Position numbers and translations under genes: made by a program
The notes under the pieces: model-generated
Seen by the model: only the letters and a program-made list of their open reading frames with translations
What the model was told of the DNA's origin: nothing
Database searches by the model: none
Shown here: positions 3,888 to 24,006 of the stretch, piece after piece
Numbering within the stretch: the first letter of the stretch is position 1
Layout of the letters: every line of letters starts with the position of its first letter
IMG/VR virus record: IMGVR_UViG_3300044217_003911
Coordinates: 1-40,333 of that record
Strand: one strand, 5' to 3'
Length of the DNA stretch: 40,333 nucleotides
Source: a virus
Taxonomy: Duplodnaviria > Caudoviricetes

Positions 3888-3977
3888 CTGGGATCATCCT
3901 AGCCTTTTAAAGACCCTTAATGATAGTTTTTCGAGAATAATAGTAATGTCTATTCTATGGCAGCGAGAAAAGTTTAT

Positions 3978-5030: not shown

Positions 5031-5098
5031 CCCACCGGAAAGATGAGGCTTAATAACTAAAGGTTATCAGGTTGGTTCACAAAATGTCTTTATAGGTC

Positions 5099-5671
5099 TT
5101 ATGAGCTTTCCTTGGCTGTTCGACAGGCTCGCTTAACGGACGCCGGAGATATATCGAAACGCTCTGCTGTAGCTTTAATGCTGGCGCTGTTCTCCTGACG
5201 CCACTGAGCTACATCCTCATCATTGATGACCTTCTCCCGTCCCAGGGCTTTCCCTTCTGCCTTGGCTCGTTTGATGCCCGCTATTTGTCGCTCCTTGATG
5301 TTGGAGCGTTCAAGCTCAGCCATTGCAGTTAGCATAGTTAGCATTGCCTTGCCCATCGGTGTACTCATGTCGAAGCCTTCACGTAACGACAACACCGCTA
5401 CGCCTTTAGCCTTGAGCAAGTCCACCGTTTCTAATACGTCAACGGTATTGCGCCCTAGACGGTCGATGGCATAGACGATGATGGTATCACCCTCACGGAC
5501 GAAGTTTAGAAGCTCCCCGAGTCCCTTTCTGTCTTTCGCTTTGATAGCACCTGAGGTCGCCTCATCGACAAACCAGCGGTCAACTTTGTGCCGTTCTTCG
5601 ATGGTCGCCCGCTGCGTATCAGTGGACTGGTCTTCTGTGCTGACTCGAACATAAGCGATAGTGGCTGACAT
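5099..5671 (-). CDS. Serine recombinase (resolvase/invertase family)
   Basis: IAYVRVSTEDQ catalytic Ser motif, DRLGRN, ELERSNIKERQ, C-terminal HTH; AAGGAG RBS. Confidence 0.96.
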   Translation of the reverse strand: MSATIAYVRVSTEDQSTDTQRATIEERHKVDRWFVDEATSGAIKAKDRKGLGELLNFVREGDTIIVYAIDRLGRNTVDVLETVDLLKAKGVAVLSLREGFDMSTPMGKAMLTMLTAMAELERSNIKERQIAGIKRAKAEGKALGREKVINDEDVAQWRQENSASIKATAERFDISPASVKRACRTAKESS

Positions 5672-5689
5672 CAGGTAGCTCCTTCATGG

Positions 5690-5803
5690 TGGCTCATTAA
5701 CTATGGCTCATAATGTAGGGCATGGCTCAATGAATATCAACACCTATGAGCCAATTTTTCAGATGGCTCAAGGAATGGATCGCAAGGTGTACCTTTTGAG
5801 CCA
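5690..5803. promoter_or_regulatory. res-like site upstream of the resolvase
   Basis: Six half-sites: TGGCTCA at 5690, 5704, 5723, 5764 and its inverse TGAGCCA at 5747, 5797. Confidence 0.8.
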
Positions 5804-6096
5804 GGGATTAACTATCCAAATGGTGTCAGCTAATCGTTGTTTTAGGCGTGTCTGGTGCGTCAGTCACGTTGATTTATATTTGATTTTAAGTACCCGCTGT
5901 TCGATGGGCTATCGTTAGGATCATGTAAATTAAGCCAAACAGTATCTATCCGCCAGCAAAACATATCGACATAAAGGTATAAAACATTGATTATAAAGGG
6001 TTTACACGCATATTTATGCCTTGTAGCTTCTTTGCTGCTGGCGCTCAGTGAGGGCGCTGAAGTAACACTATCAGATAGCTATAAGGAGTCGAACCA

Positions 6097-6285
6097 ATGT
6101 GGATCAAACTAGAACGCTGGGGAATCGAGGTAGGCGTTAGCGGCCTTCTCATCAGACTTGTTATCAATGATGTCTTTATCCGTATACCGCTGGTTGGTGT
6201 GGTGGCATGGAATCCCCACGCCTTGTGCTTTGATCGGTGGAAAGATGTCAAACATGACAGGGCACACAAGCTGCAAATGCCCTAA
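6097..6285 (+). CDS. Small hypothetical protein
   Basis: 62 aa; strong RBS TAAGGAG 9 nt before ATG. Confidence 0.55.
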   Translation: MWIKLERWGIEVGVSGLLIRLVINDVFIRIPLVGVVAWNPHALCFDRWKDVKHDRAHKLQMP

Positions 6286-6535
6286 CGTTGATCGGTGGGG
6301 ATGGACGGTGAAGGCAACCGCCAACCATCCCCCTGGGTATCAAAAAAGCGACTTACTGATAGGCCATAAATGCTAGTTCTGCGGGGTTACGGGGAAGTCT
6401 AGTCGCTATATACCTATCAATACCTGCTCAGATATTCGCCGTAAAATAACCGCAAGGCCAGCCCCTTTGGAGTCCCGTTCCTCTCTGTCAGTTAATCACA
6501 AGCGAAGCTATAGACCTACCGATTACCGTTGGCCT

Positions 6536-6910
6536 CTATACCTCAAGAAAAGCCGGATCGTTGGTATCCACTGACTCCCCACGGACCAGCAAGAAGAACA
6601 AAACCAAGGCTGTTTCGAGAACCTGGGTTTCCTCCTTGAAGGAGTCGGTCACGGAGCTTCTACACGGCCCGCTTTCGCGTGATTTTCTAAGTTGGAGCAT
6701 GACCCTTTTACCTGGGCAATCTTTCCGCTCACCAAACGCCTTGGCATCAAACCGCATCAACTCATCGACAACAGCCGGTGTTATCAGCAAGTCAGGCTCG
6801 ATAAGATGGATCAGAAGGTTTCTCCTGCTGACGGTCTTGTAGAGATGCCAAAGCTTAGTCTGTGGCGCTTGCCCCTTCAGCTTGTCTACGGATCGGACCT
6901 CAAGTGTCAT
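6536..6910 (-). CDS. Hypothetical protein
   Basis: 124 aa; RBS AAGAGGT just before ATG. Confidence 0.6.
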   Translation of the reverse strand: MTLEVRSVDKLKGQAPQTKLWHLYKTVSRRNLLIHLIEPDLLITPAVVDELMRFDAKAFGERKDCPGKRVMLQLRKSRESGPCRSSVTDSFKEETQVLETALVLFFLLVRGESVDTNDPAFLEV

Positions 6911-7163
6911 ATTACCTCTTTCTCTTTCCTCGTCTCCTTCCAGGAGCGGCCACTGTTCGTCTGGGCATATGAAGATATTTAGTCCGCTGCGTCTTTAGGA
7001 AATGACACCGCGACTCATGGCCTTATGTATGGTGTTCTCTCTGAAAAAAATAGAAGGGCAATCCCTTCGGAATCTCTCAGATTTTGCACAGAACCGCCGC
7101 TGTGGTTGCTACAACTCTCGACAACTGTGAACGCAAGTGAACTTGCTAGCGAGAGCTATCAAA

Positions 7164-7595
7164 ATGAGCAACAACCAACTGACAGTCGCAGACATCACCG
7201 TTCGCCAGGACGACGCTGGCCGTTACAACCTCAACGATCTTCACAGGGCAGCCGGTGGTGAACCGAGACACAGACCTTCACTATGGCTTGAGAATAAACA
7301 AACCCGAGAACTAATAGACGAGCTTGAGGGCGAAGCAGGAAATCCTGCTTTGGTTTCATTGCATGGTGGCCGATCACCAGGAACGTTCTCTTGCAAAGAG
7401 TTGGTCTATGCCTATGCCACATGGATTAGCCCGAAGTTCTATCTGAAAGTCATTCGTGCATACGATCAGCTTCAGACTGAAGGCGTTGCGGTATCTGAAA
7501 GTGCCGCTGGTGATCTGCTCACATCTGAGCCTTTCACCAGTTCTTACCTTTTCTTCACCAGCAACATACATACCATCCTTGCGGATAGCTGGTAG
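7164..7595 (+). pseudogene. KilA-N domain antirepressor-type protein, C-terminally truncated at ~7525
   Basis: RQDDAGRYNLNDLHRAAGG...GTFSCKELVYAYATWISPKFYLKVIRAYD is KilA-N; after GDLLT the ORF reads the antisense of the BRO fragment. Confidence 0.8.
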
Positions 7596-7885
7596 CACGA
7601 TCTTAGTGACCCAATCTTGAAAGGCTTTCGCTTCACGCTTGTCCGAACGCATGACCAGCTTGTACAGGCCGGACTCGGAGATAAGCCAGACATTCTTAAT
7701 ACGTGGGTCGAATGCTGAGGGATGAATCCGATTCACCCCTTCCAATTTCTTCTCGCTATCGTCCAGCTTCCTCAGTGCGGAAGCCGTGTTGAGCTTCCCG
7801 TTGTAGATGTAAACATCCAGGGCGCGGCACACGTCTCCAGTGACGAACCAAGGCTCACCGCCCTGATCCACAACACGGATGTTTA
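7530..7885 (-). pseudogene. BRO-N domain antirepressor fragment (no proper start, truncated C-terminus)
   Basis: NIRVVDQGGEPWFVTGDVCRAL...ISESGLYKLVMRSDKREAKAFQDWVTKIVLPAIRKDGMY is a BRO-N signature. Confidence 0.82.
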
Positions 7886-8229
7886 GGTCCAGCCGTGAGA
7901 TTGCTGAAGTGGTGGAGTCTCGCCATGACAGCGTTAAGCGAACTATTAGATCACTCCGTCAGAAACACAACATCGGTCCTCCACAGGTTGTGGAATACCC
8001 CGATAGCCTTGGACGGCCCGCTGTGGAATACCACGTCAACCAACGCGACAGCTATGTGATCGTCGCTCAGCTATCCCCTGAGTTCACCGCTCGTTTGGTT
8101 GACCGTTGGCAAGAGTTGGAGAAACAGGTAGCCCAGCCCCAGGTTCCCCAATCGTTCGCCGAGGCGCTACGTCTGGCAGCGGATACTCAGGAAAAGAAGG
8201 GACTGGGCCGAATTCTCGGCCGAGCGTAA
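7879..8229 (+). pseudogene. Rha-family phage regulatory protein fragment
   Basis: SSREIAEVVESRHDSVKRTI...RDSYVIVAQLSPEFTARLVDRWQELE...PQSFAEALRLAAD, then an abrupt end. Confidence 0.8.
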
Positions 8230-8235
8230 CTAGGA

Positions 8236-8856
8236 CTACCGTGTATACGTCTGATTGGCCCAGCCAGAGCCGCCATACGATCTACCGCTGTTGCTACCGT
8301 ATGAATTGTTCTGAGGCTGCATACCAGCTACTTGGGTCGCACCGCTCGCGGCGGTTGACGCCATACCAGCATAAGCTGCCCCCTTGGAAGGCGCTTGTCC
8401 TTTCGGTACTGAGTTGATGCGGTTGACCGCCTGGGTCTGCCTGGACTGTTTCTGACGTTGAAGCTGTCCAAGTGTCCAATTCAGGTTTCGGTCGATGGTT
8501 GAGCGGTCTCGGGCAGCGGCACCAGAAATATCCCGTAGGCCAGCACTCACCGAGTTACCTGTGATACCTGCCTCACCGGCAGACACACGCGCCCGCGCCA
8601 TCTGAGAGCGAGCTTCCCTAGTCCGTTCCTCTTTCTCTTCGGTAGCTTTCTGCTGCTCCTGGGACTGGCGTGTATTGATGTCGCCATACTCCCGACCGAG
8701 CGCCTTATAGGTGTTCTGGCGGTTTTGCTTGTACATGTTCCGCTGTGCTTCAGCCCGATCGACAGCCGCTTCATACTGCTGCTGTTGGCCGTAAACCTGT
8801 GCGCCAGTGCTGATGGCCGTCATTGTGGTAGCTGCTATCATGTATGGATCACACAT
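8236..8856 (-). CDS. T7 gp14-like internal virion (ejection) protein
   Basis: MCDP start plus hydrophobic N-terminus, Q/A-rich coiled coil, ARARVSAGEAGITGNSV motif typical of Autographiviridae-type core proteins; AAGGAG RBS. Confidence 0.75.
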   Translation of the reverse strand: MCDPYMIAATTMTAISTGAQVYGQQQQYEAAVDRAEAQRNMYKQNRQNTYKALGREYGDINTRQSQEQQKATEEKEERTREARSQMARARVSAGEAGITGNSVSAGLRDISGAAARDRSTIDRNLNWTLGQLQRQKQSRQTQAVNRINSVPKGQAPSKGAAYAGMASTAASGATQVAGMQPQNNSYGSNSGRSYGGSGWANQTYTR

Positions 8857-9361
8857 TGTCGTACTCCTTCACTGTCTGTCCTTCCGCTCCTGCTACTGCT
8901 AACTTATCGGCCAGTTCGTTCTCTGGATGTCCATCGTGACCACGTACCCAATCGAACTCGACAGAGTGAACCGCTAATAGGTCATCGATCTGTTGCCACA
9001 GGTCGGCGTTCTTTACGGGTCGCTTACTCGCGGTCTTCCAGCCTTTGCGCTTCCAGTTGTGTAACCATTGAGTAGCACCGTCCATGACGTATTTGCTGTC
9101 AGTGGTAAGCTCGACAGAAGATGACTGTTTCAGTGCTGACAAGGCTTCAATGACAGCGGTCAGTTCTGCGCGATTGTTCGTCACTGGCTCCCCTTGGAGT
9201 TTATCGGCCAACTTCAGGCGATGTCCTGAGGCGCTCAGGAGAACGGCTCCCCAACCTGCTTTGGGGTTTTGCTGACCATTATTGGGACAGGCTCCATCCG
9301 TGAAAATACGGACTGTGTTTGATGGGGTCTCAGCGGTAGTAAGTGTGTTTGGTGCAACCAT
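8849..9361 (-). CDS. rnhA: Ribonuclease HI
   Basis: IFTDGACPNNG, TNNRAELTAVIEAL, TDSKYV, WKRKGWKT..PVKNADLW, WVRGHDGHPENELADKLA; all catalytic acidic residues present. Confidence 0.95.
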   Translation of the reverse strand: MVAPNTLTTAETPSNTVRIFTDGACPNNGQQNPKAGWGAVLLSASGHRLKLADKLQGEPVTNNRAELTAVIEALSALKQSSSVELTTDSKYVMDGATQWLHNWKRKGWKTASKRPVKNADLWQQIDDLLAVHSVEFDWVRGHDGHPENELADKLAVAGAEGQTVKEYDNV

Positions 9362-10283
9362 GATTTTTCGTCCTCATTGTCGGAGACAGTCGGTTCCCTT
9401 TCAGGCAGACGGACCAACAGACGGACGAAGCCGCCAGCCTGACCGACTGTCTGCGAGAATGTGCTGGTATTGATGAAATGGAATCGCTCAAGGGATGAGC
9501 GTTTGGATAGTCTGGGGGCTGGTCTATCGGCTTTGCTGACTGGCGTAATAGTCTGTGTGGAAATGCCACCTCATCGGGCACCTATAACGCTATGCGTAAG
9601 ATGGTCGTAACGATGGGCCTGATTCGTGGTTGCACCACGGTTGATTACACACGCTGTCGATGAAGCCAATAGATGATGTGAGTGGTGATCTAAAAGATGA
9701 CCTGTAAGACTTACCTGAAAGAAGTAATCTCAGGTGCCAGTCTTCTAGATCCCCCGCCACCCCGTAGTCAGCCCAACAGAAACACTGTCAGGTCGCTCGG
9801 ATTGCGCTCAGGGCCACCACCTCCTGAGAATCCTTCCGCCGTTCTTCAGGGCATCCAAGACCCAATGTCAGGTCAAATATGGATGCTCAACGCTGCACAC
9901 CTTGAGTCTGTCGGCGGGCGAAGCCGAGCAAGACACTTAGCGGCAGCTTGAACGGGCTGTGTCGGGTTGATCCTGTTCTCATGCATCCCAGCGAATGGGA
10001 CCGTTACTAAGGCTCTCCCGAAAGCGATTAAGCTACGGTTATGACGGGGCGAAGGTTGATCTCAGTATGCCGAGCCTTCTTAGATTGCCCCCAGAAGAGG
10101 CAGTCCTCTTCCTGAGGTGCAGGGTAATCAATTTGGACTTTTGCGGCCTCCTGAACGCTTTGATAGAAAAATCAGTAGTGATGCCCTGCTGAAAAAAGAA
10201 AGCGCCTTGAGCGTCAACACAGCCACTTCTATCGGGGGTGGTAAATCAGGGCGTAGAAAGTTGGTTGCTTCCTTGGCACAGGC

Positions 10284-10643
10284 TCAGCGCAATATGTCCC
10301 CAATCGTCGCGGCTAGTTCTTCACCTTTCTCGGTAAGGTGGATGAGCTTCTTACGGCGTTCTTTGGGGTCTTCCTCTGTCCAGACCAAACCGAATCCAGG
10401 TTTATCGTGTTCTTCCCACTCGGACAGAACAGCAATCGTTCTTGAGCATGTCGCCTGTTTGGTATCGGTCTGCTTTCGGAGTTCGTGCATTGAGATGCCA
10501 GGATTCGCCGCGATATAGGTGAACAGTGAAGCCATCTTGAAAGTCATGTCTGAATGAATCTGGCGAAATTCTTGGATAACGCTCAGGGCGCGCCGCAAGT
10601 AGATTCTTTCGCTCAGGGGTAGTGGTTGGGGCTGGCTGTCCAT
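10284..10643 (-). CDS. MarR-type winged-helix transcriptional regulator (putative island repressor)
   Basis: ANPGISMHELRKQTDTKQATCSRTIAVL...GLVWTEEDPKERRKKLIHLTEKG; AGAGG RBS. Confidence 0.85.
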   Translation of the reverse strand: MDSQPQPLPLSERIYLRRALSVIQEFRQIHSDMTFKMASLFTYIAANPGISMHELRKQTDTKQATCSRTIAVLSEWEEHDKPGFGLVWTEEDPKERRKKLIHLTEKGEELAATIGDILR

Positions 10644-10664
10644 TATGTGGTTCCTCTTTGTGGG

Positions 10665-10997
10665 CTACAGGAATCGTATGCTTTGATGCCTGGCGTCACA
10701 AGCCACAGCAAACCGAACGTCTAACCAGCGGGCAAAGAACACGGCCAGCTTTGGATGCGCCCAGGTGCCGCCATACCGTCCACGGGTTGAAGAAATGAGG
10801 GGAATCCCCCTCAATACTTGTTCTAATTCATTTATGTATTCATCGGTGGACTTCAGCTTAAAGAACTCACGTTGATCCTTACCGAACTGCTTAGCGGCCT
10901 TCGTCATGTTGAAGTAACCGTCTTCTCGGAAGGTCAGGGTCTTGCCGTTCCACTGTTTGGTAGCAATTGAGGTTTGTTTGATCTCAACATCAGCCAA
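10665..10997 (-). pseudogene. Second KilA-N domain fragment
   Basis: FREDGYFNMTKAAKQFGK...GRYGGTWAHPKLAVFFARWLDVRFAVACD, then stops; TTG start without an evident RBS. Confidence 0.75.
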
Positions 10998-11106
10998 TAA
11001 AGATGAGAACCAGAGATGAGAGCGCCCCCAAGCGGTGCGGCCTTGGAAGAGGACCAGTCTGACCAGCCCTCTTCTCGATGATTATGGCTCTATATGCATT
11101 TGCCTA

Positions 11107-11460
11107 TCAGCTACCGTTTAGCTTACGGTATTCCGACATCATTTTTCTCAGCTTTCGTTCCCGCTTTAAGCTCCAGTCATATTCCTTGGCCGTTAAATTT
11201 CTATTTTGCCGATCTTCTCCATTCCAAAGCATGTCTTCCAGTTCTTGTGCTTCCCGAGCCATCTCTTCGTAAGTCGGTCCAATCCAAACCTTTCGAAAAG
11301 GGTTGTATCCCTTTTGGACACAAACGATGACGCCAACCGCAATGCAGACACCTAGAATACGAACCGACATCAAATCGGCCTCTTGCCCCATTTTCACGAC
11401 ATATCCTGAAGCCAGGAACAAGACACCCGCGACAATTGCACCCAAATTCCGACCATTCAT
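11107..11460 (-). CDS. Small two-TM membrane protein
   Basis: Two hydrophobic segments followed by a charged C-terminal tail. Confidence 0.65.
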   Translation of the reverse strand: MNGRNLGAIVAGVLFLASGYVVKMGQEADLMSVRILGVCIAVGVIVCVQKGYNPFRKVWIGPTYEEMAREAQELEDMLWNGEDRQNRNLTAKEYDWSLKRERKLRKMMSEYRKLNGS

Positions 11461-11541
11461 ACCGCTCTACCCTGTCTTATTTGCTCAACAATCAGCCTAA
11501 ATTGGATGAGCATTTGGCATCAACCAATGGTTACACTAGAT

Positions 11542-13305
11542 TCAATACAGGTGGCTCAGGTCTAGCCCCCTATACTCAAGTTGACACATGGCCTCATTCA
11601 GCACGTCTAGCGAGTACCCTGCCCCGTACCTACCAGACATCCCCGATTCGCTATGGCCCTGTAGCGCGTCCATGATGTCTTTGGAAATGCCCGAGTTTCT
11701 ACAGGCGTCCTCGAAGTTGTGGCGTAGCGAGTGAAAAGCGTTTTGCTCACGTTTGACCTTGAGATCAACAAGCAGCGATATGAAGCGCTTGGAGTAAACG
11801 GACGAATAGTAACCATCATTGCCCATCCGCATGTCTGGGAACACCCGTTTGTTACCTTGCTGGCGCATCTTCTGGACATGCTCAAGGAAACCTAACCGCT
11901 TCAACTCGGGATGGATGGGCGTCTGTCGGCGACTGCCAGGGTTTTTAAGCTTTTTATCATCACCATCAACGTTGATGTCTATGATGTCGATACCATCTAT
12001 ATTTTTCACATCAGAAACATACAGTTGCAGGATTTCCTGCATCCTCGCACCGGTAAACAGACCAATCAAAGGTGCCCAATACATACCCGAGTTCGTGGGA
12101 ATTAAGGAGCCTGGCTGTTTCCAAAAGTGCAGTGACTTACAGCCGGTGAATACTGGAGCCTGGAATATCGTCTGAAGCTCGCTCAACGTGAAGGGGTCGC
12201 GTTCTTCCCGAGCGCTTTTCTTGATGGTGACTTTCAGGCCGTTCAACGGGTTGGGCGGGCATTCATCATATTGCTTCGCTGCCCAATTCCAAAAGGCACC
12301 GGCGTAGCCAATCAGCTTGTTCACGTTCTTGGCGGACATTGGAGCCATGCCCAATTCGCTAGCTCGCTCGGCTGCCCTATCGACACGAAGCCCCTTGAGT
12401 TCTTTCTGTTTCGTCCAGTTGCTAGGAAGCTTCATCAGCGTTGACTTGAAAGCCCTACCGTCAGCCTTTGCATAGGCGGCCAGCGGCTTATCCCCCGCCA
12501 CGGTGATGAATTTATCGATGGTGGCGCGATGATCGTTAGTAGTCTTTTGAGACCATCCAGGCGATTTCTCAGCTATCCATTCTTCAACGACAGCCGAAAG
12601 CCGAACACCGCTCCTAGCGTCTGCCTCTGGAACGGCGGCCTGTGAAACCTGAGAGCTAACGGTTGGTGTAGGCACCACCTCGCCTTCATTACGCGCTTGT
12701 TGGTCTTTACCTGCCCGTATATAGGCCGCTTGGATTGCTCGGACTAGAGGTCGCCAACTCGGGGAATCAGGAGACAAGGACAGCTCAACACCATCCCATG
12801 ACAAAACATCTTCAGCCTCGCCCTTGAAGAAGACATCTTGTTGACCACGGGCATAGCTGCGGCGAGTGGATGCAAGGCTATCATCAACTTCCTGGGCGTA
12901 CTCATCGAAGTCCCACCGCTCCCAGTCTGTTCCTGGTTCCCCTGGTTCTTCCTCAAAGATGCCTTCTGTCCTGATGTCTTCGTCTTCATCCAATATCGAA
13001 GCATGGTAGAGACTTGCAAGGCGCTCTATCTGTTCATCGGTTAGGTAGTCTAGGGGCTTGGCTTGGGCTGATACCCAACGGCGGTGCTTATCAAACTTTC
13101 TGTCGACCTCAACCGCAGCTTTACGGACAAGCCGCAACGCTTCGTGATAGTTGGAGGTATTGAGGGAAAAGGTCTCTTCCGCTTTGGGGTAACTGCCCTG
13201 GATGTCTTGGGGGATGGCTGCCCGATGATAGTAACGAGCGCCACGGCGATACAGGCGAGGATGTCCGGTAACTTTCACTGTGCTCATGGCCTCCCAATGT
13301 AACAC
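11542..13305 (-). CDS. int: Tyrosine integrase with DUF6538-like N-terminus
   Basis: LYRRGARYYHRAAIPQDI N-terminus; catalytic motifs FTGARMQEI, K(LKN), FHSLRHNF, LQGHS, RYG; adjacent to the att. Start may be ATG at 13287. Confidence 0.95.
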   Translation of the reverse strand: MLHWEAMSTVKVTGHPRLYRRGARYYHRAAIPQDIQGSYPKAEETFSLNTSNYHEALRLVRKAAVEVDRKFDKHRRWVSAQAKPLDYLTDEQIERLASLYHASILDEDEDIRTEGIFEEEPGEPGTDWERWDFDEYAQEVDDSLASTRRSYARGQQDVFFKGEAEDVLSWDGVELSLSPDSPSWRPLVRAIQAAYIRAGKDQQARNEGEVVPTPTVSSQVSQAAVPEADARSGVRLSAVVEEWIAEKSPGWSQKTTNDHRATIDKFITVAGDKPLAAYAKADGRAFKSTLMKLPSNWTKQKELKGLRVDRAAERASELGMAPMSAKNVNKLIGYAGAFWNWAAKQYDECPPNPLNGLKVTIKKSAREERDPFTLSELQTIFQAPVFTGCKSLHFWKQPGSLIPTNSGMYWAPLIGLFTGARMQEILQLYVSDVKNIDGIDIIDINVDGDDKKLKNPGSRRQTPIHPELKRLGFLEHVQKMRQQGNKRVFPDMRMGNDGYYSSVYSKRFISLLVDLKVKREQNAFHSLRHNFEDACRNSGISKDIMDALQGHSESGMSGRYGAGYSLDVLNEAMCQLEYRGLDLSHLY

Positions 13306-13642: not shown

Positions 13643-14200
13643 ATGGAATTATTTAATCAGTGGCACTACATCTTTGAGTTCACCGACGCCGAGCGCGCCA
13701 AGATCCAGGCCGAAACGCGACTGCTCACTCACCGAGCGGGATACGGCATTTTGGTTGGCGTGATCACGACCCTGGCCGTCTTCCTGTCGCAGTGGCCCTG
13801 GATGGGCGAGCCTCACCTAATCCATGGCTACGCCACCTACGGCTCGCTGCCGGCTGGCCTGGTGGTCGGGCTTCTGACGCCCCACTGGATCACTTGGCAC
13901 TGCTACAAGCGCTGGCGTGATGTATGGACACCCCTGGCCAGGTCCAGGCGAGAGCTGAAGGGCCTGGAGACCCAGCCACCCACTCGCCCGGCTACGCTTA
14001 TCGAGATGGTCGATCGTCGAGTGATCAAGCTAACCCCAGGAAACTGCACGGCCCTGCTGATGTTCGGCTTTTTGGCCATCGCCATGATCCTCGGGCCAAT
14101 CCTGATGCTGAATCCGATTACCCGCGCACTGGCCGCCCTATTCTTGTTGTGCAGCTTCTTTATCTCCCTTCTCTTGGGTGACCGCCTGGGGCGTCATTAA
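13643..14200 (+). CDS. Moron-like ~4-TM membrane protein
   Basis: Opposite strand to the late operon; hydrophobic pairs; likely start MELFNQ at 13643; stop overlaps the stop of the giant gene (ttaa, 14197-14200). Confidence 0.7.
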   Translation: MELFNQWHYIFEFTDAERAKIQAETRLLTHRAGYGILVGVITTLAVFLSQWPWMGEPHLIHGYATYGSLPAGLVVGLLTPHWITWHCYKRWRDVWTPLARSRRELKGLETQPPTRPATLIEMVDRRVIKLTPGNCTALLMFGFLAIAMILGPILMLNPITRALAALFLLCSFFISLLLGDRLGRH

Positions 14201-17200
14201 CGCCCCAGTACCTCGCGACGGTACTCCCTGTTGAAGTAATCCACCTCAGACTCGATAGCCTCTTCGATTCTCTCGACGGCCTCGTTCCGTTCATCTTCCG
14301 AGATTGCTTCGTCAGCCTCGATCGCGTCGCGCTCACTGCGCAGATCTTTGAGAACCTGCTCAACTTCAGTGGCCACGTCGAAGAGGTCGATCTTCGCCTG
14401 GTGGTTACGGTAGAAGGCCTCGGCCTTGTCGGCCGGCAGGTTATCCAGCTGCTCGGCGTATTGCCCGACTTCGTCCCGGCGCTGATAGAACGTATCCATG
14501 TCACCGTAATCGCTCACGCTGCCAAGAATCTTGCCGACGAACGGTATACGCCAGCGCTCCATCTTCTCACCTTGAGCAACGCGAGAAATAGCATCGACAG
14601 TCTTCTCGGTGAAGCCGTAGGCACCACCACCGTAAAAGTTCGTGAGGTGCTGGAAGGTCTCCGGCGCGATATCGACACTGCCTGATACATACTCGCTTCC
14701 GCCGGTGAGCTTGTTGAGGAACTCGGCGAATGACTTGTAAGCGTTCGGCGTCGATCGGAATGACCGCGAGCTGTCCGGCGAGGGCGTGCCAAACGGGAAC
14801 TCTTCCCGGTAAATCGGCTGCCCTGAAAAGTCCTCGTTAACCGCCAGCTGGGTGATCGAGCGCAACAGTGTGGGCGAGATGTTCTTCGCCAGCACATTCT
14901 CTGCATCATCGGACCCCTCAAAGCCCACCGGGCTAAAGCTGCCAAGAGCCGCGAGCATAAAGTCCTGGCCAGCGCTGACAAGGTCTTTCTCGCCACTCAG
15001 GACCGCCTCAAAATGCGTGCCAATAACGGAAAACACGTTGTACCCATAGGGCAGCGGAACCGAGACATAATCCTTGTCGCCGGTCATGAGAACCAAGTTC
15101 CGCTCCTTGATATAGCTTGGGACTTTATCCCAGTACAGCTGGCCATCCTCGTCCTCGTCGGAAATCATCCGGTTAAACATGCTGAGCACGAACGAGCCGG
15201 TGACCATGCCAGCCGCAAGCTTTTGGGCCAGGTTCATTCTCGACCAAGCGTTGATCCGGCTTTTTCCTCGCTGAGGCGGGTCGATCGTGACCATGGCCCT
15301 GGCGAAGTTGGCCGTACCCTGCACGCTGGCATTGAAGAACATGTAAGCCGAGTTGAAGAGCGTGCCTAGCTCGCCCCGACGGTTAAAGTTGACGGTCATG
15401 TTTTTGGCCAACGATGCCGCCTTAGGCCGTGAGATACCGGCTTTCCGTGCATTGACGTAGGCGCTCAGACGAACCGCGTTCTCAACTGCCCCGTTGACGT
15501 TTTCAACAAAGTCGGCGGTGGCCTTGCGCCCTTTGAGCATGGCTGCCATTGAACCACCGCTGGACCTGCGCATCATCTTCTGGATAGCTTTGGCCTGGCT
15601 GTCGATGTCCTTCATGTCGAAGTAGCCCGTCTTGGCACCATCTTCCATGAACTCCTGGAAGTAATGATCCCAGATGCGCCCGGGTCCGGTGGACCGAGAG
15701 GGCTTACCTGACAGCCCCCGGTAGGCGGCGCGCATGGCTGGACGGATATCGCGAGCCGTCTGGCGAAGGATATGCTTGCCTTTGATCTTGCCGTCTTCGC
15801 GGGTTTGCTCAGCCGAGAGGTTGAGCATCGCTGTTTGGACGTCGCGCAAGAAGTTGCTGATCAAGAACTCCGGGTTGTAGCTCGTCACCAGGCTTGCCAT
15901 CGTGCGCACGACGCCACCGATACCCCGGACCAAGATGTTGTTGCTCTCAGGCCCGACGTTGCGCATGGCGTTTAGCAGGCGCTCGTTATGGAGCTTGAGG
16001 TAGAAGGTCTGGCCGTTCGACTTGACCTTGAAGTAGCGGTCATTCATTTCCATGGCCACCGGGGCCAGCTCGACAAAGATCCGCTTCTCGCCGGTATCCG
16101 GATCGGTGCGGGTGACCTTCTGGCGCTGGACGTCAGGACGATCCCGAGTGAAAACCTCCCAGACGTCAGGGTTCGGGTTGTCGTTCATGAGCGAGAGCAG
16201 GGATTGCCCCACCTCGTTCTTGCGCCGGCGGACAAGCGACTGGGTGGTATCCACGATCGCCTGAGTAGACGGTGAGGCGGCCTTGGATCTACGACCAAGC
16301 GAGGTCCGGGCCTCGCTGCCAGAGATCTCGAAACCTCGTCCCGTGCTCTGACGGCGGGCACCCTGCTCTCCGCCCGGCGCGTCCTCATCCCGAGCCCAGC
16401 CCTTGAGTGGTACATAGGCCTCGTAGCTGGCCTCCCAGGCGTCCACGGTGCCATCGGTCTCTAGTCCGCCCTCTCGGATCGCCTCTCGGCGAAGCCGGAG
16501 CATTTCATAGACGATGTTGGCCAGGCGATCGAAGTCCTCCTGCTTGCCGCTGTTCTCGACCATCTCGATGATCTCGCTGGCCTCAGCGTTCGTCATGCCA
16601 GAACCGCCATCCTGGTAGCGGCTGTCGCCTGGGTTTCGCTCGGCGATGACTTGGTTGCGCTCTGGCGCGTGTCGGGCATACAGGTAGGCGTCCAATGCCG
16701 CCTGCTCGATGTCGGTCTCGGCCAGGCCATCAGCCAGACGTTTAACGTACTGCTCCTCGAGGTTGCGGAGATCCCGCTCGGTCTTGCCGTGGAAGAGCTC
16801 CTCGGCCAGGTAGGCATCGTTTTCCTCGTTGACCTGACCACCGGTCTCCTGGATCTTCTGCTCCAGACGCTTAATCGGCAGCATCTTGTCGGCGATCTTG
16901 CGCAGGAAGGTGTCTGTCAGGGATTCATCCGGCAGTCCGAAACGGGTCGAATCGTTGTCGCTGTAGGCACCACCGGGCGGCTCCTCGATATTGACGCTCG
17001 AATCCTCGCTGGCCTGGCCGGCATCGTTGTCGAGACTGTAGCGAGGATCTGTATCAGCGCGGCCCTCGGTCCAGGCCCACTCGGGCATCAGGCCTGTCTT
17101 CTGGTCAGCAAAGACTGTATCCAGGATCCCGGCGGTGCGGTTGTGCTCACCGTAGGGGCCGAAGTTCAACCAGCTGTTCTGACCCCGGGTCTCGCTGGTC

Positions 17201-20200
17201 AGGGCGCCAATAGCGGGGCCGTGGAACAGCCGGACGTGCGCCTGCCAGGCATTCTCCTCCCCGCGAGCGCGGAACCCAGCCCCTTCCAGGCCGTGGCCGA
17301 AGGCGTCGTGAACCGCTCGGAACAGGTCGTTAGCCAGCACTCGGCGGCGCGGGCCGTCCGGTGAGCCGAACGCCCACTTGATTCCGGTATCTTCGAGCAG
17401 CGGGTTGTCGGTTGGGTCGAAGTCCTCGTCGGTGCCGAAACCGTCCTCAGTGGTGAACACCGCCATTCGCTTATTGACCCGCAGGTCGCGCATCGCGTTC
17501 CAGGGGTTGCCGTCGTAAGGGTCGGTTTCCCCGTCGAAGAAATAGAACTCGTAGCCCGCATTCACCAGGGCATCATACTGAGCCCGGGTCTGGCGGACGA
17601 GATCCTGGTAGGCTTCCTTGACGCGCGGATCCTGGGGCGCGTGCTCCATCTCTTCATAGGCCTGAGCAATTCGCTCGGCCCGCTCGACATCGACCTCTAC
17701 GTATTCGGCTTGCCTTTGGAGGTCGATTCCGTTTTGTTCGGCGTATCGCTCGGCGACTCGGTTGAGCTCCGGGTCCGGCCCTGTTGCCCCTCGTATAGTC
17801 GGCGTACCCTCAAGCGGCGTTGTGCCTCGGCTCGGCGCCCGTCCTCCTCGGTTTCCGGTCGATTGACGTCGTCCTCCGTCATTGGTGTCTCCTGTCAGTG
17901 AGTAGCGCGGATCAGTTCCCTCGAAGGGGTTGTAGCTCGGATCGTAGACCATGTAGACCACGTCCGGTTCGCCGCCATTGAAGGGGGCGAATAACTCTTT
18001 ATCCCACCCCTCGGGGCGATAATCCTCATTCCAGCTATCCCGGCCAACCTCCTTGAAGCCGTTCACGGCATAGATATCAGGAAGCACTGTATCAAAGCCG
18101 TCGAGCTTAGTACCGCCTTGCTCGACAGCGAGGACCAGCATCGGATGAACCTTACCACCGCCATCAGAGAATACACTAACGATGTCGCCGTCTTCCTTGA
18201 TCGCCAGACCGCTCTTCCCGTCCGGCGTCATGAACAGGCGCATGTTCTGGTAGTCGTTGGGAGGATAGACGTAGACGGCGGCGCCGTACTTGGATTGCTT
18301 CTTCGACTCGTTGATGGCGTCGGTGAAGCGGCGCGCGCTCTCGGGTGAGGTATCCAGCTCCTGCAGCTCCACCTCAGGGAGGCGGGTATCGCGGAGAAGG
18401 TTCCGGAATGCGGGTTTCGGGCGGTAGCTGGCGACTACCCCCCGAAGTCCTCGATCATTTCCAGGGCTTCTGCGCGTGAAACTCCGTGCCGTCTCATGAC
18501 CATCTCGGCCAGGTCGTTGGGCGGCGAACTCTCTCCGCTGCCGGTCTCTCTCGCTAAGCTCGCGGCGCTGGCCGTCTCGGGATCCAGGCCTTCCTGGAAG
18601 GGCTCGGGCAGCATTGCTTCCCCTTCGGCCTCGAGGTGCGCTTCCGGATTCTCCAGATCCGGATAGGCCAGCTCCAGATACATCTCTCTGGTAAGTGGCA
18701 GTTCCTGCCGGATCATTAGCTGTACGATCGGATCCTCCCCAGCGGTTGAAATCAATTCCGCCGGCGTGATCCCAGATCTGTCGTCTTGTCTGCTCAAGAG
18801 TTGCCCTCCCGTTCTTGAAGTCAGTCCATACATCTACAATTTTAGCAGTGTTGGCGGCCTGCGCCTTATACCCAGGCCGAAAGAGTTCGCGGATCATCTC
18901 CCAAGTTATGGACTGCATCTCTCGAGGCAACACATCGCGCTTGGCAGCGGCGTTCCGATACGCCTCGGCGTAGATGGCGTAAGTCCCGCTGATGCCGTAG
19001 GCGCTGTTACTTCCCGGGCCGGTCTCGCCCGTCACGTTGCCGCCGAAGTTGTGGAGAACCTCTCGAGAGCCTCCGGCCAAGGGCTGTAGCAGGCCAGCTG
19101 CCACGGCGTGAGTGTCGATGGTCACGAAGCCACGCTGGCTGTTGGGCGCGACGATATTGTTGTAGAAGTTGCGGACTTTGTGCTGGCCACCCAGCTGGGC
19201 GTTGAGATTGGCATCGCTGCCGTCGCGCAGCAGGTCGACCGCTTTCTTGATCTCGTTGTTGCTACCCCAGGCGACCTTGGCGTTCTCACCCCTGTCGGTG
19301 GTGGCAAAGTCGCCGAGGCTGCCGTCCGGGTTGATGTTGCGATAGGCGCGATCGTTGAAGGTCTCGTCGAAGACGCGGATCCAGGCGCCCTGGCTCATGG
19401 CATCCTCGATCTCCGATAGCCGCTTGCCCTCGATCGTCTGACGCAGTGACGCGTAGCTGTCCTTGCCATAGACCCGGTTGAGGGTGTCGGTCATGGCTGG
19501 CGACCAGGCGGTATTCTGCTGCTCGGTCCAGGTGTCGAGAAGGCGCTCAGCAAGGCTGGCGTTCTGGAACCAGTCCTTCTGTGGGCTGAGGGCAGCGATA
19601 ACACCGGCGGTCTGCTTATTACTGAGGCCATAGCGCTCGGCCCAGGTTCTGGATACCCGGTTCGCGCCTTCGTACCAGCGCTTAACCTGGTCGCGCACGT
19701 CGCTGGGCACCATATCGAACAGCCACAGCAGGTTGCTCTCGACGTGGCTGCGAAGGCGGGCCAGCTTCTTCTGCGGGGTGTTCGCTCCTGCTGTTGGTCG
19801 GAAGTTTGGGTAGTTCTCGATCAGCTCTGCCTGGCGCTCGTCGAGTTGTGCCTTGCCCAAGGTCTTAATATCCAGCTGGCCGTAGTTGGCCTGGGGATCG
19901 AACGTCTTCTTCATCGCCTTGGGGAAGCGGACGCTGACGGTCGGCGCGTTCTTGACTCGCTTGGGCAGCCCCTTCTCCCCCTCACGGATCCGGTAGCGAA
20001 CCGTGTCGCCACCCCCTTCACGGCGAGCCAGGGCTGCCTGTGAATCGGCAATCAGGTCTACGATCTCCTTGCGTCCCCATTCCTTGGCCACCCGGGGTCC
20101 GAAAGCGCGGCGCAGCCAGCGGCGGATAGCGGAGACCATCCGATCCAGGGCGGTCGAGCTCGGATCGGTTTGAGCCAGATGGGCGGCGTACTCTTCGGCC

Positions 20201-23200
20201 ACCAGCCGGTTAGCCCCTTGCCGAGATAGCCCCTCGAGCTGACCTGCATAGAGTTCGCGGATCCGGTCTTTCCACTGCTTCGGCATATCGCGGTAGATGC
20301 CACCCAGCGCGGGGTCGAGGTCACTGCCCAGCCGCCGACGAACGCCCAGGTGAAAGGCCTCGTGGAGGATCGTGGAAGCGGTGTCGGACGTGCCGTTTGC
20401 GTTAGCGGATACTACCCAGATGGTGCCGTTGTCCTGCACCCCTTTGACCATACCTTGAACGCCGTCACGTTCGATGGCCTTACGCAGTGGGGCCGGAAGA
20501 CCGTTCTCGTTAGCGACGGCCTTGACTGGAATGCCGGCATCGGCGGCACGGCGAACGACAGCTTCAACCTCCCTTTGGGCAAGCGTCTTCTGTGTGGCGC
20601 GATAACGGGTGTCTTGGCCAGCCTGGCCCTCGTCAGCGGCAGCCTCATCACGTGCCTGGTCAGGATTGCGCTCGGTGGTAACCTCCACCGCCTGCACCTC
20701 ATGGCGCTTAAGCGAGGTTCGGCCACCGCTCTGGAGATTCTCCAGCCACACCTCGCCGCTGTCGGCGTACTCCAGTACCTGGTACGGGGTATTGCCGCGC
20801 GCGTAACCAGTGCGGTTGTTGAAGGTAACGGTATCGCCAGGCTCGGCGTTATTCAGGGCAGACTTGAGCTGCTCAACCCGCCGGGCTTTTCGCTTGTTTC
20901 TGTCCTGGGTTGTTGCAGCTGACCGACCGCGCTGACGAGACTTATCGCCAGCACCCTGGTTCCGAGGCTTGCGGTTGCTGCGCTGATTGCGCGTTGGAAT
21001 CTTGCCGAACGGCTTGGTGGTATCGCCATCACGCGACCAGGAGCGAACCTCGTCGGTGGTACTCTCGGTGATCTGCCCCAGGCCATTCCATCCTTCAGGG
21101 TAGTTGGCCAGGTAGCCGCGACGGGCCGCCTCCTTGGAGGGGAAGCCGACCATGACCTTGTGCTCGTCGAAATTACCCTGCTCGTCCAGCTGGTCGATGA
21201 CGTAGGTTTTGCCAGTGTCGGGCTGATCGCCGACAAAGACATCCACGTTGTCGCCGTCGGCACCCCGCGTGCCCTTGATATCCCCATAGTCGTGGGCGAG
21301 AGTGGACGCCCACTCGTTGCCGTCGGGGTCAGTGCCACGGCGGGTGGAGCCTTTGGGGTTCTCGATGGCGACTTCCATGCCCTGAACGTTGGCCCGCCCC
21401 TTGCGGTAGTTGCCGGCCTCGGCCTGCGCTGGCGTCGGGCTGGTGTTGGTCTGCTGGCCGGCTTCCTCGATACGCGCGCGCGTTGATTGATCGCCTGACT
21501 CGATCGCCTCCATGGCCTGCTCCGGCGTCATGCGACGGATTTCGCCATCAGGATAACCAAGATCGCCCAGCTGCGTTTTCATATCGCGGGTGACCTGGGT
21601 CGGCGCCGAGGTGGGCGTCTGCGATTGCTCAGGCTCGCGCAAGCCCTGGGCTTGACCATCCGGACCAACGCGGACGCGGGGCTTCTGATCCTGGCCGACG
21701 CGGACGCGCGGCTTGTTCTGACGGCGCTGTGGTGCTTCCTGGCCAGATTCCTGCAGATCGGACGGGGCCTGGCTTTCGCTCTGATTCACCCTGTCGGCCA
21801 CTTGGTTGTAGGTGTCACCGATCGTCTCGAGCTTCTGGCGGACCTGGTTGAGGCCTTCGTTGTCCTGGTTGGCCCGGGCCAGGGTCTCCTCCTCGAAGGC
21901 CTGCTGGGCCTGCCCAGCGGCGCTATCCAGGCGCTTGACCTCCTCATCGAGGCCCTGGTCGCTGGCTCGTTTGCGCAGGGATTTAAGCGCGTCGCCATCG
22001 ACCAGCCCGTCACGCTGCTTGCGCTGATCGGGGCCGAGATCCTGACGCGGCTGGCGAATCAGATCGCCCGGGTGCGTCGGGGCCTGATCCTGCTGTTCGA
22101 TCGTTTGGTTTTCCTGGCTAGCCTGGCGATCTTGGCCGGAGCGGGTTTCGCTGGTGTCGGGTGTGGCACCCGGCGTTTCCTCGAGCAGGTTGTCGGCCTC
22201 CTGCCCCTCCTGCGGCTGCTGGTCGATACCCTGAGGGCGGACCTCGGGCTCCTGCTGGCCTTCCTGGCCGCGCTGGCCGCGCTGGCCGCCTGCTGCAGCG
22301 CCCATGCCGGCCCCCATCGCACCACCGATCGCAAGGCCACCCATGGCCGCGTTGGCTACGTTATCGGTGGGCTCAATGTCTGAGTCGGCCTTGCCCATCA
22401 CGATGTTCTCGGACACCTGCTGGCCGGCCTCCTGGGGCATTTCCTCGAAGACACCCTCGCCGACGGTGGTGCGAAGCATGGAGCCAAGTCGGGTATTAGG
22501 GCCGCCGGTCAGCACCCTGGAAAGCGCACGGTCACCCATACCACCAAAGGCACCGGTAGCCATCCCGGAGAGCACGAACGCCTGGCTTGAGGCATCCTCG
22601 GCAAGCTTGTTGCGTGCCTCTTCGAACTCCATGTCGCCTTCGCTCATCAAGCTTTTCATGGCTTCGGAGTCAGCCAGCTGCTCTTCGCTCATGCCCTTGA
22701 TCTGCTCGCGGACCTCGCGCGAGGATCCGCCACCACCCATCAGGCCTTCGGCGATACCGCCAGCCAGGGTGGCTGTGGTTGCTGCGCGCTTGGCGGCTTT
22801 TTTCGGATCGATGCCTTTGGCCAAGTTCCATGCGTAAACGCCCTTGGACAGGGCCATCGAGGGTGCCATGGAGATAGCGGTCTCGGGGATCGACTCGGTG
22901 ACCCCGGAGAAGTAGGAACGCCAGTCAGACCAAGCCGGACCTGGCTTGCCTTGCTCGCTATCCCACCAGGCTTTCTGGCGAGCCTCCCGGGTTTCCGGGG
23001 TCAGCTCTCTCTCGTTGCGCTCGATGCGATCGCTGAGGAGCTCCTCGGATTCCTTGCCGTTCATCCACTCATCGGCCTGGTCGATAGAGTCGACCACTTC
23101 CTCACCGAAGACGTTGCGCACCGCTTCACGGGTGTTGAGCGCCGCACGGTCTGCCCCCATGGATAGCAGGTTGCCGAAGTCGGTAAGAACATCCGGCTCC

Positions 23201-24006
23201 TCGTCGGGCTCTTGGGGCTCCACCATGTCGCCAAGGCCGCGCCGACGAAGGCCTGGGGCGACCTTTGAGGAGGGATCTTGCTCGTCCTCCTCGTTGCCCG
23301 GCAGCAGGCCATCCAGGCCCAGGTTGCGAAGCCCGTCCTCGAGGGTCTTTCTCCCCTTTGTCGCCAAGTCGTCATCATCCGCGACAGGGGTTTTCAGGCC
23401 CAGGGTTTCGGGTTGTTGCTGGCCCGCCTCTTCCATGGTCTCGGAAAGCGACGCCTCGGATTCTGACAGCTCATTCTGGAGACGATCCTGAGACCGCCGG
23501 CGAATAGTAGGGTGCGCGCCTTCAGTTTTCTCGCGTGATTCGGCCAGTTCCTCGCGTTGCTTGGCGACTTCGCCGACCGACTGGCTCAGTTCTGGATCGA
23601 TGGCCGGCTGATCGCCACCCTCGCGATCTTCCATCAAGCCGACCACGGCCTCATTGAGGTTCGGATTGATCCGAGGCTTTTGGTCCTGCTTGTCCTCGAT
23701 TTTTTGCCCCTGATCGACGCCACCGGAATAGCTGGCATCCGGCACTGACAGGCCGCCCGACTCTTCCGTCCCCTCACTGCCTGACTCATCTCCGCCATTC
23801 CGGAACACGTCGTTGGCGGTGGCATTGAAGAAATCGTCCCGTAGCTTACGCTCGGCGCCCTCGGGTGCCTTGGGTCTGACGTGGCGGTCATAGAATTTAG
23901 CGCGGACAGCTTGCCGAGTCTCCCAGCTTGACTCCTTGAACTCGGGTGACTCGGCGACCTGTTTCCAGGTTGGGGTCTTATTGCTCTCTTGGTTAGCGGC
24001 TTTCAC
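14197..24006 (-). CDS. Large polyvalent virion/ejection protein (InPase, HExxH peptidase, glycosylase-like, GNAT-like, HDxxGH, C-terminal LPD38)
   Basis: 3269 aa; InPase-like IENPKGSTR...HDYGDI..GADGDNVDVF...FDEHKVM (~21005-21470); HEAFH at 20350-20364; LPD38-like WDKVPSYIKERNLV...VPLPYGYN near the C-terminus; last gene of the ejection cluster. Confidence 0.9.
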   Translation of the reverse strand: MKAANQESNKTPTWKQVAESPEFKESSWETRQAVRAKFYDRHVRPKAPEGAERKLRDDFFNATANDVFRNGGDESGSEGTEESGGLSVPDASYSGGVDQGQKIEDKQDQKPRINPNLNEAVVGLMEDREGGDQPAIDPELSQSVGEVAKQREELAESREKTEGAHPTIRRRSQDRLQNELSESEASLSETMEEAGQQQPETLGLKTPVADDDDLATKGRKTLEDGLRNLGLDGLLPGNEEDEQDPSSKVAPGLRRRGLGDMVEPQEPDEEPDVLTDFGNLLSMGADRAALNTREAVRNVFGEEVVDSIDQADEWMNGKESEELLSDRIERNERELTPETREARQKAWWDSEQGKPGPAWSDWRSYFSGVTESIPETAISMAPSMALSKGVYAWNLAKGIDPKKAAKRAATTATLAGGIAEGLMGGGGSSREVREQIKGMSEEQLADSEAMKSLMSEGDMEFEEARNKLAEDASSQAFVLSGMATGAFGGMGDRALSRVLTGGPNTRLGSMLRTTVGEGVFEEMPQEAGQQVSENIVMGKADSDIEPTDNVANAAMGGLAIGGAMGAGMGAAAGGQRGQRGQEGQQEPEVRPQGIDQQPQEGQEADNLLEETPGATPDTSETRSGQDRQASQENQTIEQQDQAPTHPGDLIRQPRQDLGPDQRKQRDGLVDGDALKSLRKRASDQGLDEEVKRLDSAAGQAQQAFEEETLARANQDNEGLNQVRQKLETIGDTYNQVADRVNQSESQAPSDLQESGQEAPQRRQNKPRVRVGQDQKPRVRVGPDGQAQGLREPEQSQTPTSAPTQVTRDMKTQLGDLGYPDGEIRRMTPEQAMEAIESGDQSTRARIEEAGQQTNTSPTPAQAEAGNYRKGRANVQGMEVAIENPKGSTRRGTDPDGNEWASTLAHDYGDIKGTRGADGDNVDVFVGDQPDTGKTYVIDQLDEQGNFDEHKVMVGFPSKEAARRGYLANYPEGWNGLGQITESTTDEVRSWSRDGDTTKPFGKIPTRNQRSNRKPRNQGAGDKSRQRGRSAATTQDRNKRKARRVEQLKSALNNAEPGDTVTFNNRTGYARGNTPYQVLEYADSGEVWLENLQSGGRTSLKRHEVQAVEVTTERNPDQARDEAAADEGQAGQDTRYRATQKTLAQREVEAVVRRAADAGIPVKAVANENGLPAPLRKAIERDGVQGMVKGVQDNGTIWVVSANANGTSDTASTILHEAFHLGVRRRLGSDLDPALGGIYRDMPKQWKDRIRELYAGQLEGLSRQGANRLVAEEYAAHLAQTDPSSTALDRMVSAIRRWLRRAFGPRVAKEWGRKEIVDLIADSQAALARREGGGDTVRYRIREGEKGLPKRVKNAPTVSVRFPKAMKKTFDPQANYGQLDIKTLGKAQLDERQAELIENYPNFRPTAGANTPQKKLARLRSHVESNLLWLFDMVPSDVRDQVKRWYEGANRVSRTWAERYGLSNKQTAGVIAALSPQKDWFQNASLAERLLDTWTEQQNTAWSPAMTDTLNRVYGKDSYASLRQTIEGKRLSEIEDAMSQGAWIRVFDETFNDRAYRNINPDGSLGDFATTDRGENAKVAWGSNNEIKKAVDLLRDGSDANLNAQLGGQHKVRNFYNNIVAPNSQRGFVTIDTHAVAAGLLQPLAGGSREVLHNFGGNVTGETGPGSNSAYGISGTYAIYAEAYRNAAAKRDVLPREMQSITWEMIRELFRPGYKAQAANTAKIVDVWTDFKNGRATLEQTRRQIWDHAGGIDFNRWGGSDRTANDPAGTATYQRDVSGAGLSGSGESGSAPRGRRGSNAARALPGRPGSRDGQRRELSERDRQRREFAAQRPGRDGHETARSFTRRSPGNDRGLRGVVASYRPKPAFRNLLRDTRLPEVELQELDTSPESARRFTDAINESKKQSKYGAAVYVYPPNDYQNMRLFMTPDGKSGLAIKEDGDIVSVFSDGGGKVHPMLVLAVEQGGTKLDGFDTVLPDIYAVNGFKEVGRDSWNEDYRPEGWDKELFAPFNGGEPDVVYMVYDPSYNPFEGTDPRYSLTGDTNDGGRRQSTGNRGGRAPSRGTTPLEGTPTIRGATGPDPELNRVAERYAEQNGIDLQRQAEYVEVDVERAERIAQAYEEMEHAPQDPRVKEAYQDLVRQTRAQYDALVNAGYEFYFFDGETDPYDGNPWNAMRDLRVNKRMAVFTTEDGFGTDEDFDPTDNPLLEDTGIKWAFGSPDGPRRRVLANDLFRAVHDAFGHGLEGAGFRARGEENAWQAHVRLFHGPAIGALTSETRGQNSWLNFGPYGEHNRTAGILDTVFADQKTGLMPEWAWTEGRADTDPRYSLDNDAGQASEDSSVNIEEPPGGAYSDNDSTRFGLPDESLTDTFLRKIADKMLPIKRLEQKIQETGGQVNEENDAYLAEELFHGKTERDLRNLEEQYVKRLADGLAETDIEQAALDAYLYARHAPERNQVIAERNPGDSRYQDGGSGMTNAEASEIIEMVENSGKQEDFDRLANIVYEMLRLRREAIREGGLETDGTVDAWEASYEAYVPLKGWARDEDAPGGEQGARRQSTGRGFEISGSEARTSLGRRSKAASPSTQAIVDTTQSLVRRRKNEVGQSLLSLMNDNPNPDVWEVFTRDRPDVQRQKVTRTDPDTGEKRIFVELAPVAMEMNDRYFKVKSNGQTFYLKLHNERLLNAMRNVGPESNNILVRGIGGVVRTMASLVTSYNPEFLISNFLRDVQTAMLNLSAEQTREDGKIKGKHILRQTARDIRPAMRAAYRGLSGKPSRSTGPGRIWDHYFQEFMEDGAKTGYFDMKDIDSQAKAIQKMMRRSSGGSMAAMLKGRKATADFVENVNGAVENAVRLSAYVNARKAGISRPKAASLAKNMTVNFNRRGELGTLFNSAYMFFNASVQGTANFARAMVTIDPPQRGKSRINAWSRMNLAQKLAAGMVTGSFVLSMFNRMISDEDEDGQLYWDKVPSYIKERNLVLMTGDKDYVSVPLPYGYNVFSVIGTHFEAVLSGEKDLVSAGQDFMLAALGSFSPVGFEGSDDAENVLAKNISPTLLRSITQLAVNEDFSGQPIYREEFPFGTPSPDSSRSFRSTPNAYKSFAEFLNKLTGGSEYVSGSVDIAPETFQHLTNFYGGGAYGFTEKTVDAISRVAQGEKMERWRIPFVGKILGSVSDYGDMDTFYQRRDEVGQYAEQLDNLPADKAEAFYRNHQAKIDLFDVATEVEQVLKDLRSERDAIEADEAISEDERNEAVERIEEAIESEVDYFNREYRREVLGR
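17697..17882 (-). CDS. Nested +1-frame small ORF inside the polyvalent gene (candidate inhibitor)
   Basis: AGGAG (17889-17893) 6 nt before ATG; starts right after a TDPRYSL linker; host frame is R/G-rich over its first half. Confidence 0.5.
   Translation of the reverse strand: MTEDDVNRPETEEDGRRAEAQRRLRVRRLYEGQQGRTRSSTESPSDTPNKTESTSKGKPNT
18435..18797 (-). CDS. Nested +1-frame acidic protein (120 aa) inside the polyvalent gene (candidate immunity/inhibitor)
   Basis: GGAGG (18805-18809) 7 nt before an in-frame TTG; about 26 D/E versus 8 R/K; amphipathic helical pattern; host frame degenerates into R/G/S low complexity over this span. Confidence 0.72.
   Translation of the reverse strand: MSRQDDRSGITPAELISTAGEDPIVQLMIRQELPLTREMYLELAYPDLENPEAHLEAEGEAMLPEPFQEGLDPETASAASLARETGSGESSPPNDLAEMVMRRHGVSRAEALEMIEDFGG

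Follow-up and report, generated by a model that had tools for sequence, protein, structure and literature searches.

We report that a 120-aa open reading frame (ORF) lying in the +1 frame inside a giant phage ORF of 3269 aa is, as judged from sequence comparisons, a real gene with its own start signals, which joins two new protein families in a new variation on effector-immunity organisation. Its product is composed of two fused modules, N and C, which are probably domain-specific partners likely to bind and inhibit the enzyme-like domains flanking them, i.e. a glycosylase/lyase-like domain upstream and a GNAT acetyltransferase-fold domain downstream.

The window, by which we mean the whole stretch of DNA analysed, is a 40,333-base virus record that is 73% complete. 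Genes for portal, capsid, adaptor, tail and internal-virion proteins are followed in it by the giant ORF (14197..24006, minus strand) and then by an integrase gene. The giant ORF matches InPase, DUF7178 and LPD38 in Pfam and a DarB-like family in PHROG, and it qualifies as a polyvalent protein as described in main-text passages of Iyer et al. (2017, PMC5512222), since several conflict domains and an LPD domain are united in this single ORF within a late-gene region; InPase, LPD38, the GNAT fold and the late-gene context are shared with the proteins treated in those passages. From its gene position and family, the protein is likely packaged and injected; a Pfam search found no MuF delivery domain in it. 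Positions 1-13305 of the window carry the integrase (11542-13305), a resolvase, RNase H, Bro-N and a T7 gp14-like gene as well as the host-like genes for a Na/Ca exchanger and a metallophosphoesterase, a gene content that suggests a prophage end plus flanking host DNA.

The nested gene (18435..18797, minus strand) overlaps the bases that encode residues 1737-1856 of the giant protein. An earlier, sequence-only reading of the window had placed its TTG start at 18797, 7 nt behind a GGAGG Shine-Dalgarno (SD) sequence (18805..18809, minus strand), and its stop at 18435, and these assignments proved exact; an ATG farther upstream, at 18833, would extend the product to 132 aa. Its SD pairing (-10.8 kcal/mol) is the strongest among the 25 off-frame ORFs in the giant gene. 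The product had been described as acidic, and we counted 26 D/E against 8 K/R in its 120 residues, a D/E count far above that of the other off-frame ORFs (the next has 12, the rest 0-5; n = 25). The N-module of ~47 aa (18594..18734, minus strand) is separated by an S/A/G/E spacer (18516..18593, minus strand) from the C-module of ~26 aa (18438..18515, minus strand), and a comparison of the two modules by hhalign gave a homology probability of 20%. The N-core of the window also contains an SD-like site and an ATG, at which the C-half alone could start; this site may simply result from the codons for Glu-Gly-Glu. A scan of 405 long ORFs for further acidic nested ORFs returned clusters in the +2 frame, which have the appearance of conserved-domain shadows.

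Direct searches with the 120-aa ORF as a single query gave no matches, and neither the ORF nor either module matched any Pfam or PHROG family; we therefore collected loci via the neighbouring domains and built profiles from those. In the ESM Atlas, one N homolog yielded a 'hypothetical' lead at 0.79 and nothing else. The N profile matched 1,792 clusters at 50% identity (E<=0.001), some of them false, including at least one among the best 150; 212 N-profile proteins were retrieved, which are called hypothetical wherever they are named and whose median length is 70 aa. The C-module is matched by 156 database proteins.

The third-position GC content (GC3) of the main frame drops to 0.30 in the N-core and 0.38 in the C-core, against 0.73-0.82 in the flanking domains, and is back at 0.74 in the spacer. 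Furthermore, among the 22 loci with a fully nested N-module the mean pairwise amino acid identity is 0.377 in the +1 frame versus 0.245 in the main frame, and among the 54 loci with a fully nested C-module it is 0.330 versus 0.244, so that for both modules the alternative frame is the better conserved across the overlap, as in an overprinted gene. The sequence-only reading, which took the nested frame to be the selected one and the main frame to be shadow-like, had named conservation of the main-frame peptide in homologs as the result that would speak against it; these identities are the reverse. Variation is greatest at the third base of the +1 codons, and control stretches within both enzyme domains have the opposite pattern, with the main frame more conserved. 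It is thus scarcely credible that the +1 peptide is itself a shadow read off-frame, or that it serves solely to control translation, without a functional product: the first ~22 codons do coincide with the conserved terminal part of the glycosylase domain, but the frame-specific conservation and the wobble pattern contradict such a view, as do stand-alone homologous genes and the covariation within the module, which suggests that N is a folded mini-domain.

The start signals are retained as well. Of 91 homologous N cores, 88 are preceded by a start codon with an SD sequence (pairing -4.4 or better), compared with 85/357 and 166/357 control positions by the same measure (24-46%); the homologs therefore keep a ribosome site and start of their own, as an overprinted gene should. 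A programmed +1 frameshift, which would make a shortened giant protein ending in the modules, could account for the nearly fixed +1 geometry and the rare in-frame fusions described below, but it is highly unlikely in view of these signals and of two further features. In several loci a +1 stop immediately precedes the ATG. Moreover, where the glycosylase domain ends its ORF, N is an ordinary small downstream gene in frame +1, 0 or +2, in some such loci with an in-frame stop just ahead of its ATG, and such separate genes lie up to 459 nt from the domain. The stops directly ahead of the ATG, along with the genes that stand apart in frame 0 or +2, point to independent initiation rather than frameshifting, and both frameshifting and a non-coding shadow are largely excluded.

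The domain upstream of the nested gene (18730..19749, minus strand, main frame), which overlaps DUF7178, is predicted to have the fold of the helix-hairpin-helix (HhH) superfamily. Its structure was predicted with a pLDDT of 93.7, and in a VIA structure search ranks 1-24 were all HhH-superfamily glycosylases or queuine-salvage relatives, the best match being Ogg2 (TM1821) with a moderate Z of 9.5 (rmsd 4.1, 186 residues aligned); Foldseek returned nothing at E<=0.001 with the same model. A lysine (K191, 19177-19179, minus strand) and an aspartate (D212, 19114-19116, minus strand) are unchanged in 44 of 44 aligned domains. We take their arrangement to fit the EndoIII-type glycosylase/lyase motif, and their catalytic role would follow by analogy. 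The domain thus resembles HhH-GPD glycosylases such as Ogg2 (TM1821), AGOG and EndoIII in fold and in the Lys...Asp-Thr-His motif pair, but differs from them in its ~10% identity and in its virion-protein context. On the other side of the nested gene, the modelled part of the downstream domain (17947..18342, minus strand, main frame) is, by its predicted structure, a GNAT fold (pLDDT 88.9; structure match with Z 11.4, rmsd 2.5, 118 aligned). The predicted structures thereby confirm both the glycosylase-like and the GNAT-like assignments made earlier from the sequence. PDB sequence searches with the two domains gave only noise, and for DUF7178 no description was found in the literature covered, in which subscription journals are thinly represented.

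The N-module is closely linked to this glycosylase domain. When viral loci were fetched by the domain, an N peptide was present in all 82 evaluable loci of 84, two being cut at a contig end; 75 of these were recognised by pattern, six by eye and one lay 459 nt farther on, and the 84 loci are redundant and include 32 that trained the N profile. When loci were instead fetched by the module, the glycosylase domain lay directly upstream in 80/80, with N in the +1 frame in 79; this set comprises the best 80 of 113 profile matches. Among 92 non-redundant loci, N is fully nested in 22, nested in a short main-frame tail in 50 and absent in one, and in 19 the main-frame stop falls inside or before the N core. 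A metagenome set collected after the profile was built (80 fetched, minus 12 redundant and 4 truncated), which may overlap the viral samples, has the N-module in 61 of 64 non-redundant loci, 60 of them in +1. In a more divergent set of 41 loci from GTDB, N was found by HMM in 23 (20 in +1, two in +2 and one in frame 0), weakly by eye in nine, and was absent from nine. In the Rhodobacteraceae phage LS06-2018-MD07, the N-module is nested and unannotated.

This linkage bears on how N might act. Ugi is a small acidic glycosylase inhibitor whose target is the host Ung, and Ung has another fold than the HhH domain of the window. Mimicry of the Ugi kind, as put forward in the sequence-only reading, is supported weakly: the N core is net negative (mean ~-4.7, and <= -3 in 87% of 327 redundant pairs), but its first helix is basic and much of the acidity of the window ORF falls at poorly conserved positions. 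If N were a Ugi- or Ocr-like DNA mimic directed against host glycosylases or other DNA enzymes, its adjacency to this domain would be mere genetic hitch-hiking. The net charge and the conserved acidic positions D4, E20, E38 and E40 accord with this, but N is never found apart from this glycosylase family in the 80 module-fetched loci and the linkage survives domain shuffling; the modest charge and the basic first helix also count against it, and the C-module would be left unexplained. We consider it very unlikely. A search for covariation between glycosylase and N in 327 pairs (effective number ~109) gave no clear signal, the top inter-chain pair being at rank 33 and driven by gaps.

Glycosylase domains that lack N make up 9 of the 41 loci in the GTDB set, 3 of the 64 metagenome loci and two of the three cultured-phage records bearing the glycosylase (CRP-738 and zth2-2, in which no N-module was found). 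The nine GTDB domains look intact, the Asp motif being kept in nine and the Lys motif in eight; N is thus not an absolute requirement, or something else takes its place in these loci. Most of the N-less GTDB glycosylases directly precede one of two other domains, and we note that two uncharacterised in-frame domains recur after N-less glycosylases, one in L292, L295, L296, L316, L319 and L333 and the other in L294, L314, L340 and L358. In a quick tree of 38 glycosylase domains, the module-less ones group together (3 changes) with low support.

These domains also weigh on the possibility that each module completes its cognate enzyme in trans, be it as an activating or structural subunit or as a folding chaperone. 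Strict linkage to the domain is equally expected of such subunits, and a precedent is offered by Cas11d, which completes Cas10d, as cited in the introduction of Zhong et al. (PMC10327210). The in-frame fusions of N to the C-terminal end of the glycosylase, in proteins P0157 and P0122, fit an activator as well as an inhibitor. On the other hand, intact glycosylase domains exist without N, the glycosylase (pLDDT 93.7) and GNAT (88.9) domains are modelled as full folds without the modules, and the fusions number only 2 among the 212 proteins scanned. Both fusions start within the domain and therefore look like fragments; P0122 (Parvibaculum indicum WP_167095705.1) is a stand-alone 111-aa gene comprising the last glycosylase helix and the N-module, possibly an orphan cassette. 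We regard the subunit or chaperone role as an unlikely alternative to inhibition.

The C-module, for its part, is associated with the GNAT domain. Of 77 non-redundant loci, training sequences being counted among them, 58 have the module just ahead of the GNAT, in the +1 frame in every case. Upstream of the C-positive linkers stand one glycosylase-like family in 29 loci, another in 15 and other regions in 13, three of which can be assigned by eye to the two families just mentioned; the window is the only C locus with the present glycosylase family upstream, and at least three different families precede C overall. The remaining 19 of the 77 GNAT loci lack C, and several of them bear other +1 peptides. 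In L084, L087 and L159, a divergent +1 peptide that the C profile does not match lies ahead of GNAT. Among loci fetched with the C profile, many of them on contigs already counted, GNAT was directly downstream in 21 of the 27 inspected (of 31); of the six without it, four were ends of an unrelated 608-aa ORF and the other two were ends of a 150-aa ORF. Two phage records contain annotated minor capsid proteins that are extended at the C-terminus by the same GNAT. In Limnohabitans phage DC33 the C-module is nested and unannotated, while none was found in Streptomyces phage R4, with a solo GNAT, or in vir075, where a small annotated gene directly follows GNAT. By eye, gp4 of Microbacterium phage UtzChips, a minor capsid gene, has an unannotated acidic +1 ORF ahead of GNAT (L330, ~1790-1930). 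In L255, L260, L263, L265 and L268, the nested ORFs behind the second glycosylase-like family have N-parts of their own before the C-module, and these are candidate partners of that family.

A third module extends the pattern. A second nested +1 gene in the window, encoding 61 aa (17697..17882, minus strand; SD pairing -7.4), lies ahead of a domain that we refer to as HDAFGH. Of 12 close loci, 10 have this module before the HDAFGH domain, in the +1 frame and in neither of the other two; where HDAFGH is the domain immediately after the glycosylase, a single ORF holds both N and the third module (L337, L422 and L480). More distant HDAFGH domains are preceded by a different +1 module (L103, 3478-3667; L122, 3520-3700; L255, 3211-3400), to which N appears, by eye, to be fused in P0119. 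N and a C-like module have also come together independently in P0142 (by profile match) and P0147 (by eye). Given these recurrent fusions, the bipartite product of the window can be read as combining the partner of each domain that flanks the linker. The proposal of two mini-domains, with the N-part tied to the glycosylase-like domain upstream and the C-part to the GNAT domain downstream, agrees with these results, since in separate profile searches with neighbours recorded N and C were separable, each with its own neighbouring domain. By these sequence comparisons, N and C are independent modules, each of which stays with its own enzyme domain when domains are shuffled.

We infer that the modules probably bind their domains and inhibit them. 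Under this scheme both proteins, giant and small, would be translated from one mRNA late in infection, and the small one would block base-excising and acetylating activities that may harm the cell in which they are made or the DNA of the phage. It would then be left behind or stripped at packaging or ejection, and with the partner lost the enzymes would become active in the next host alone. No ordinary immunity gene can come directly after an effector domain that lies midway in a 3000-aa ORF, which would explain why the partner is overprinted in +1 in the adjoining linker; and since all the modules share one frame, a recombination that takes place in the joining linker also fuses the partner modules into a bipartite ORF.

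As in toxin-immunity pairs, a small cognate ORF adjoins and co-occurs with the effector domain, with the exceptions given above. In the MuF toxin genes of temperate phages, 89.4% are followed by a small unannotated ORF, according to the sections of Jamet et al. (2017, PMC5576092) consulted; there, as here, a virion-linked effector domain has a small unannotated ORF alongside, and N as a small gene after an ORF-terminal glycosylase reproduces the MuF layout reported in those sections. The GNAT family of the window, moreover, also ends minor capsid proteins. The present case differs in that the effectors are internal to a 3269-aa protein and their partners are overprinted in linkers, where they may precede their domain and fuse combinatorially; furthermore, no MuF domain was detected here, and the toxicity of the effectors is putative. 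The intragenic antitoxins of the RpnL/RpnS system (Zhong et al. 2023, PMC10327210, in the part consulted; Koonin commentary, PMC10400984) are likewise small proteins made from an internal start within the gene of the enzyme that they control. RpnS, however, is the toxin C-terminus read in frame, whereas the partner in the window is a different protein of unrelated sequence, in the +1 frame and on the phage side. With regard to polyvalent proteins, the words 'glycosylase', 'overlapping' and 'small protein' are absent from the main text of Iyer et al. (PMC5512222), passages of which make no mention of nested inhibitors. Nested genes, in-frame Rpn antitoxins and phage toxin-immunity pairs are each already known; the literature, with subscription journals thinly covered, yielded no report of polyvalent proteins with partner modules placed out of frame. 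The lambda embedded spanins Rz/Rz1 are an example of an out-of-frame nested gene, Rz1 being the partner of the host gene's product, and resemble the present arrangement in layout.

A broader reading, which we hold tentatively but consider quite possible, is that giant polyvalent proteins carry a hidden gene layer, in which the inhibitor of each effector is overprinted in +1 in the adjoining linker, the inhibitors mark the active weapons, and N represents a new class of HhH-glycosylase inhibitor. If so, domain shuffling would automatically reassemble a matching multi-inhibitor protein. N and C are two unnamed families that annotation overlooks when they are nested, for example in the cultured phages checked, and they would account for the R/G/A-rich, shadow-like linkers of polyvalent proteins. 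A cognate partner may permit the cloning and assay of domains that are otherwise hard to express, and the role of a virion-borne HhH glycosylase on entry becomes testable. The arrangement offers a way in which a phage could produce multi-enzyme injected proteins and leave the producing cell unharmed.
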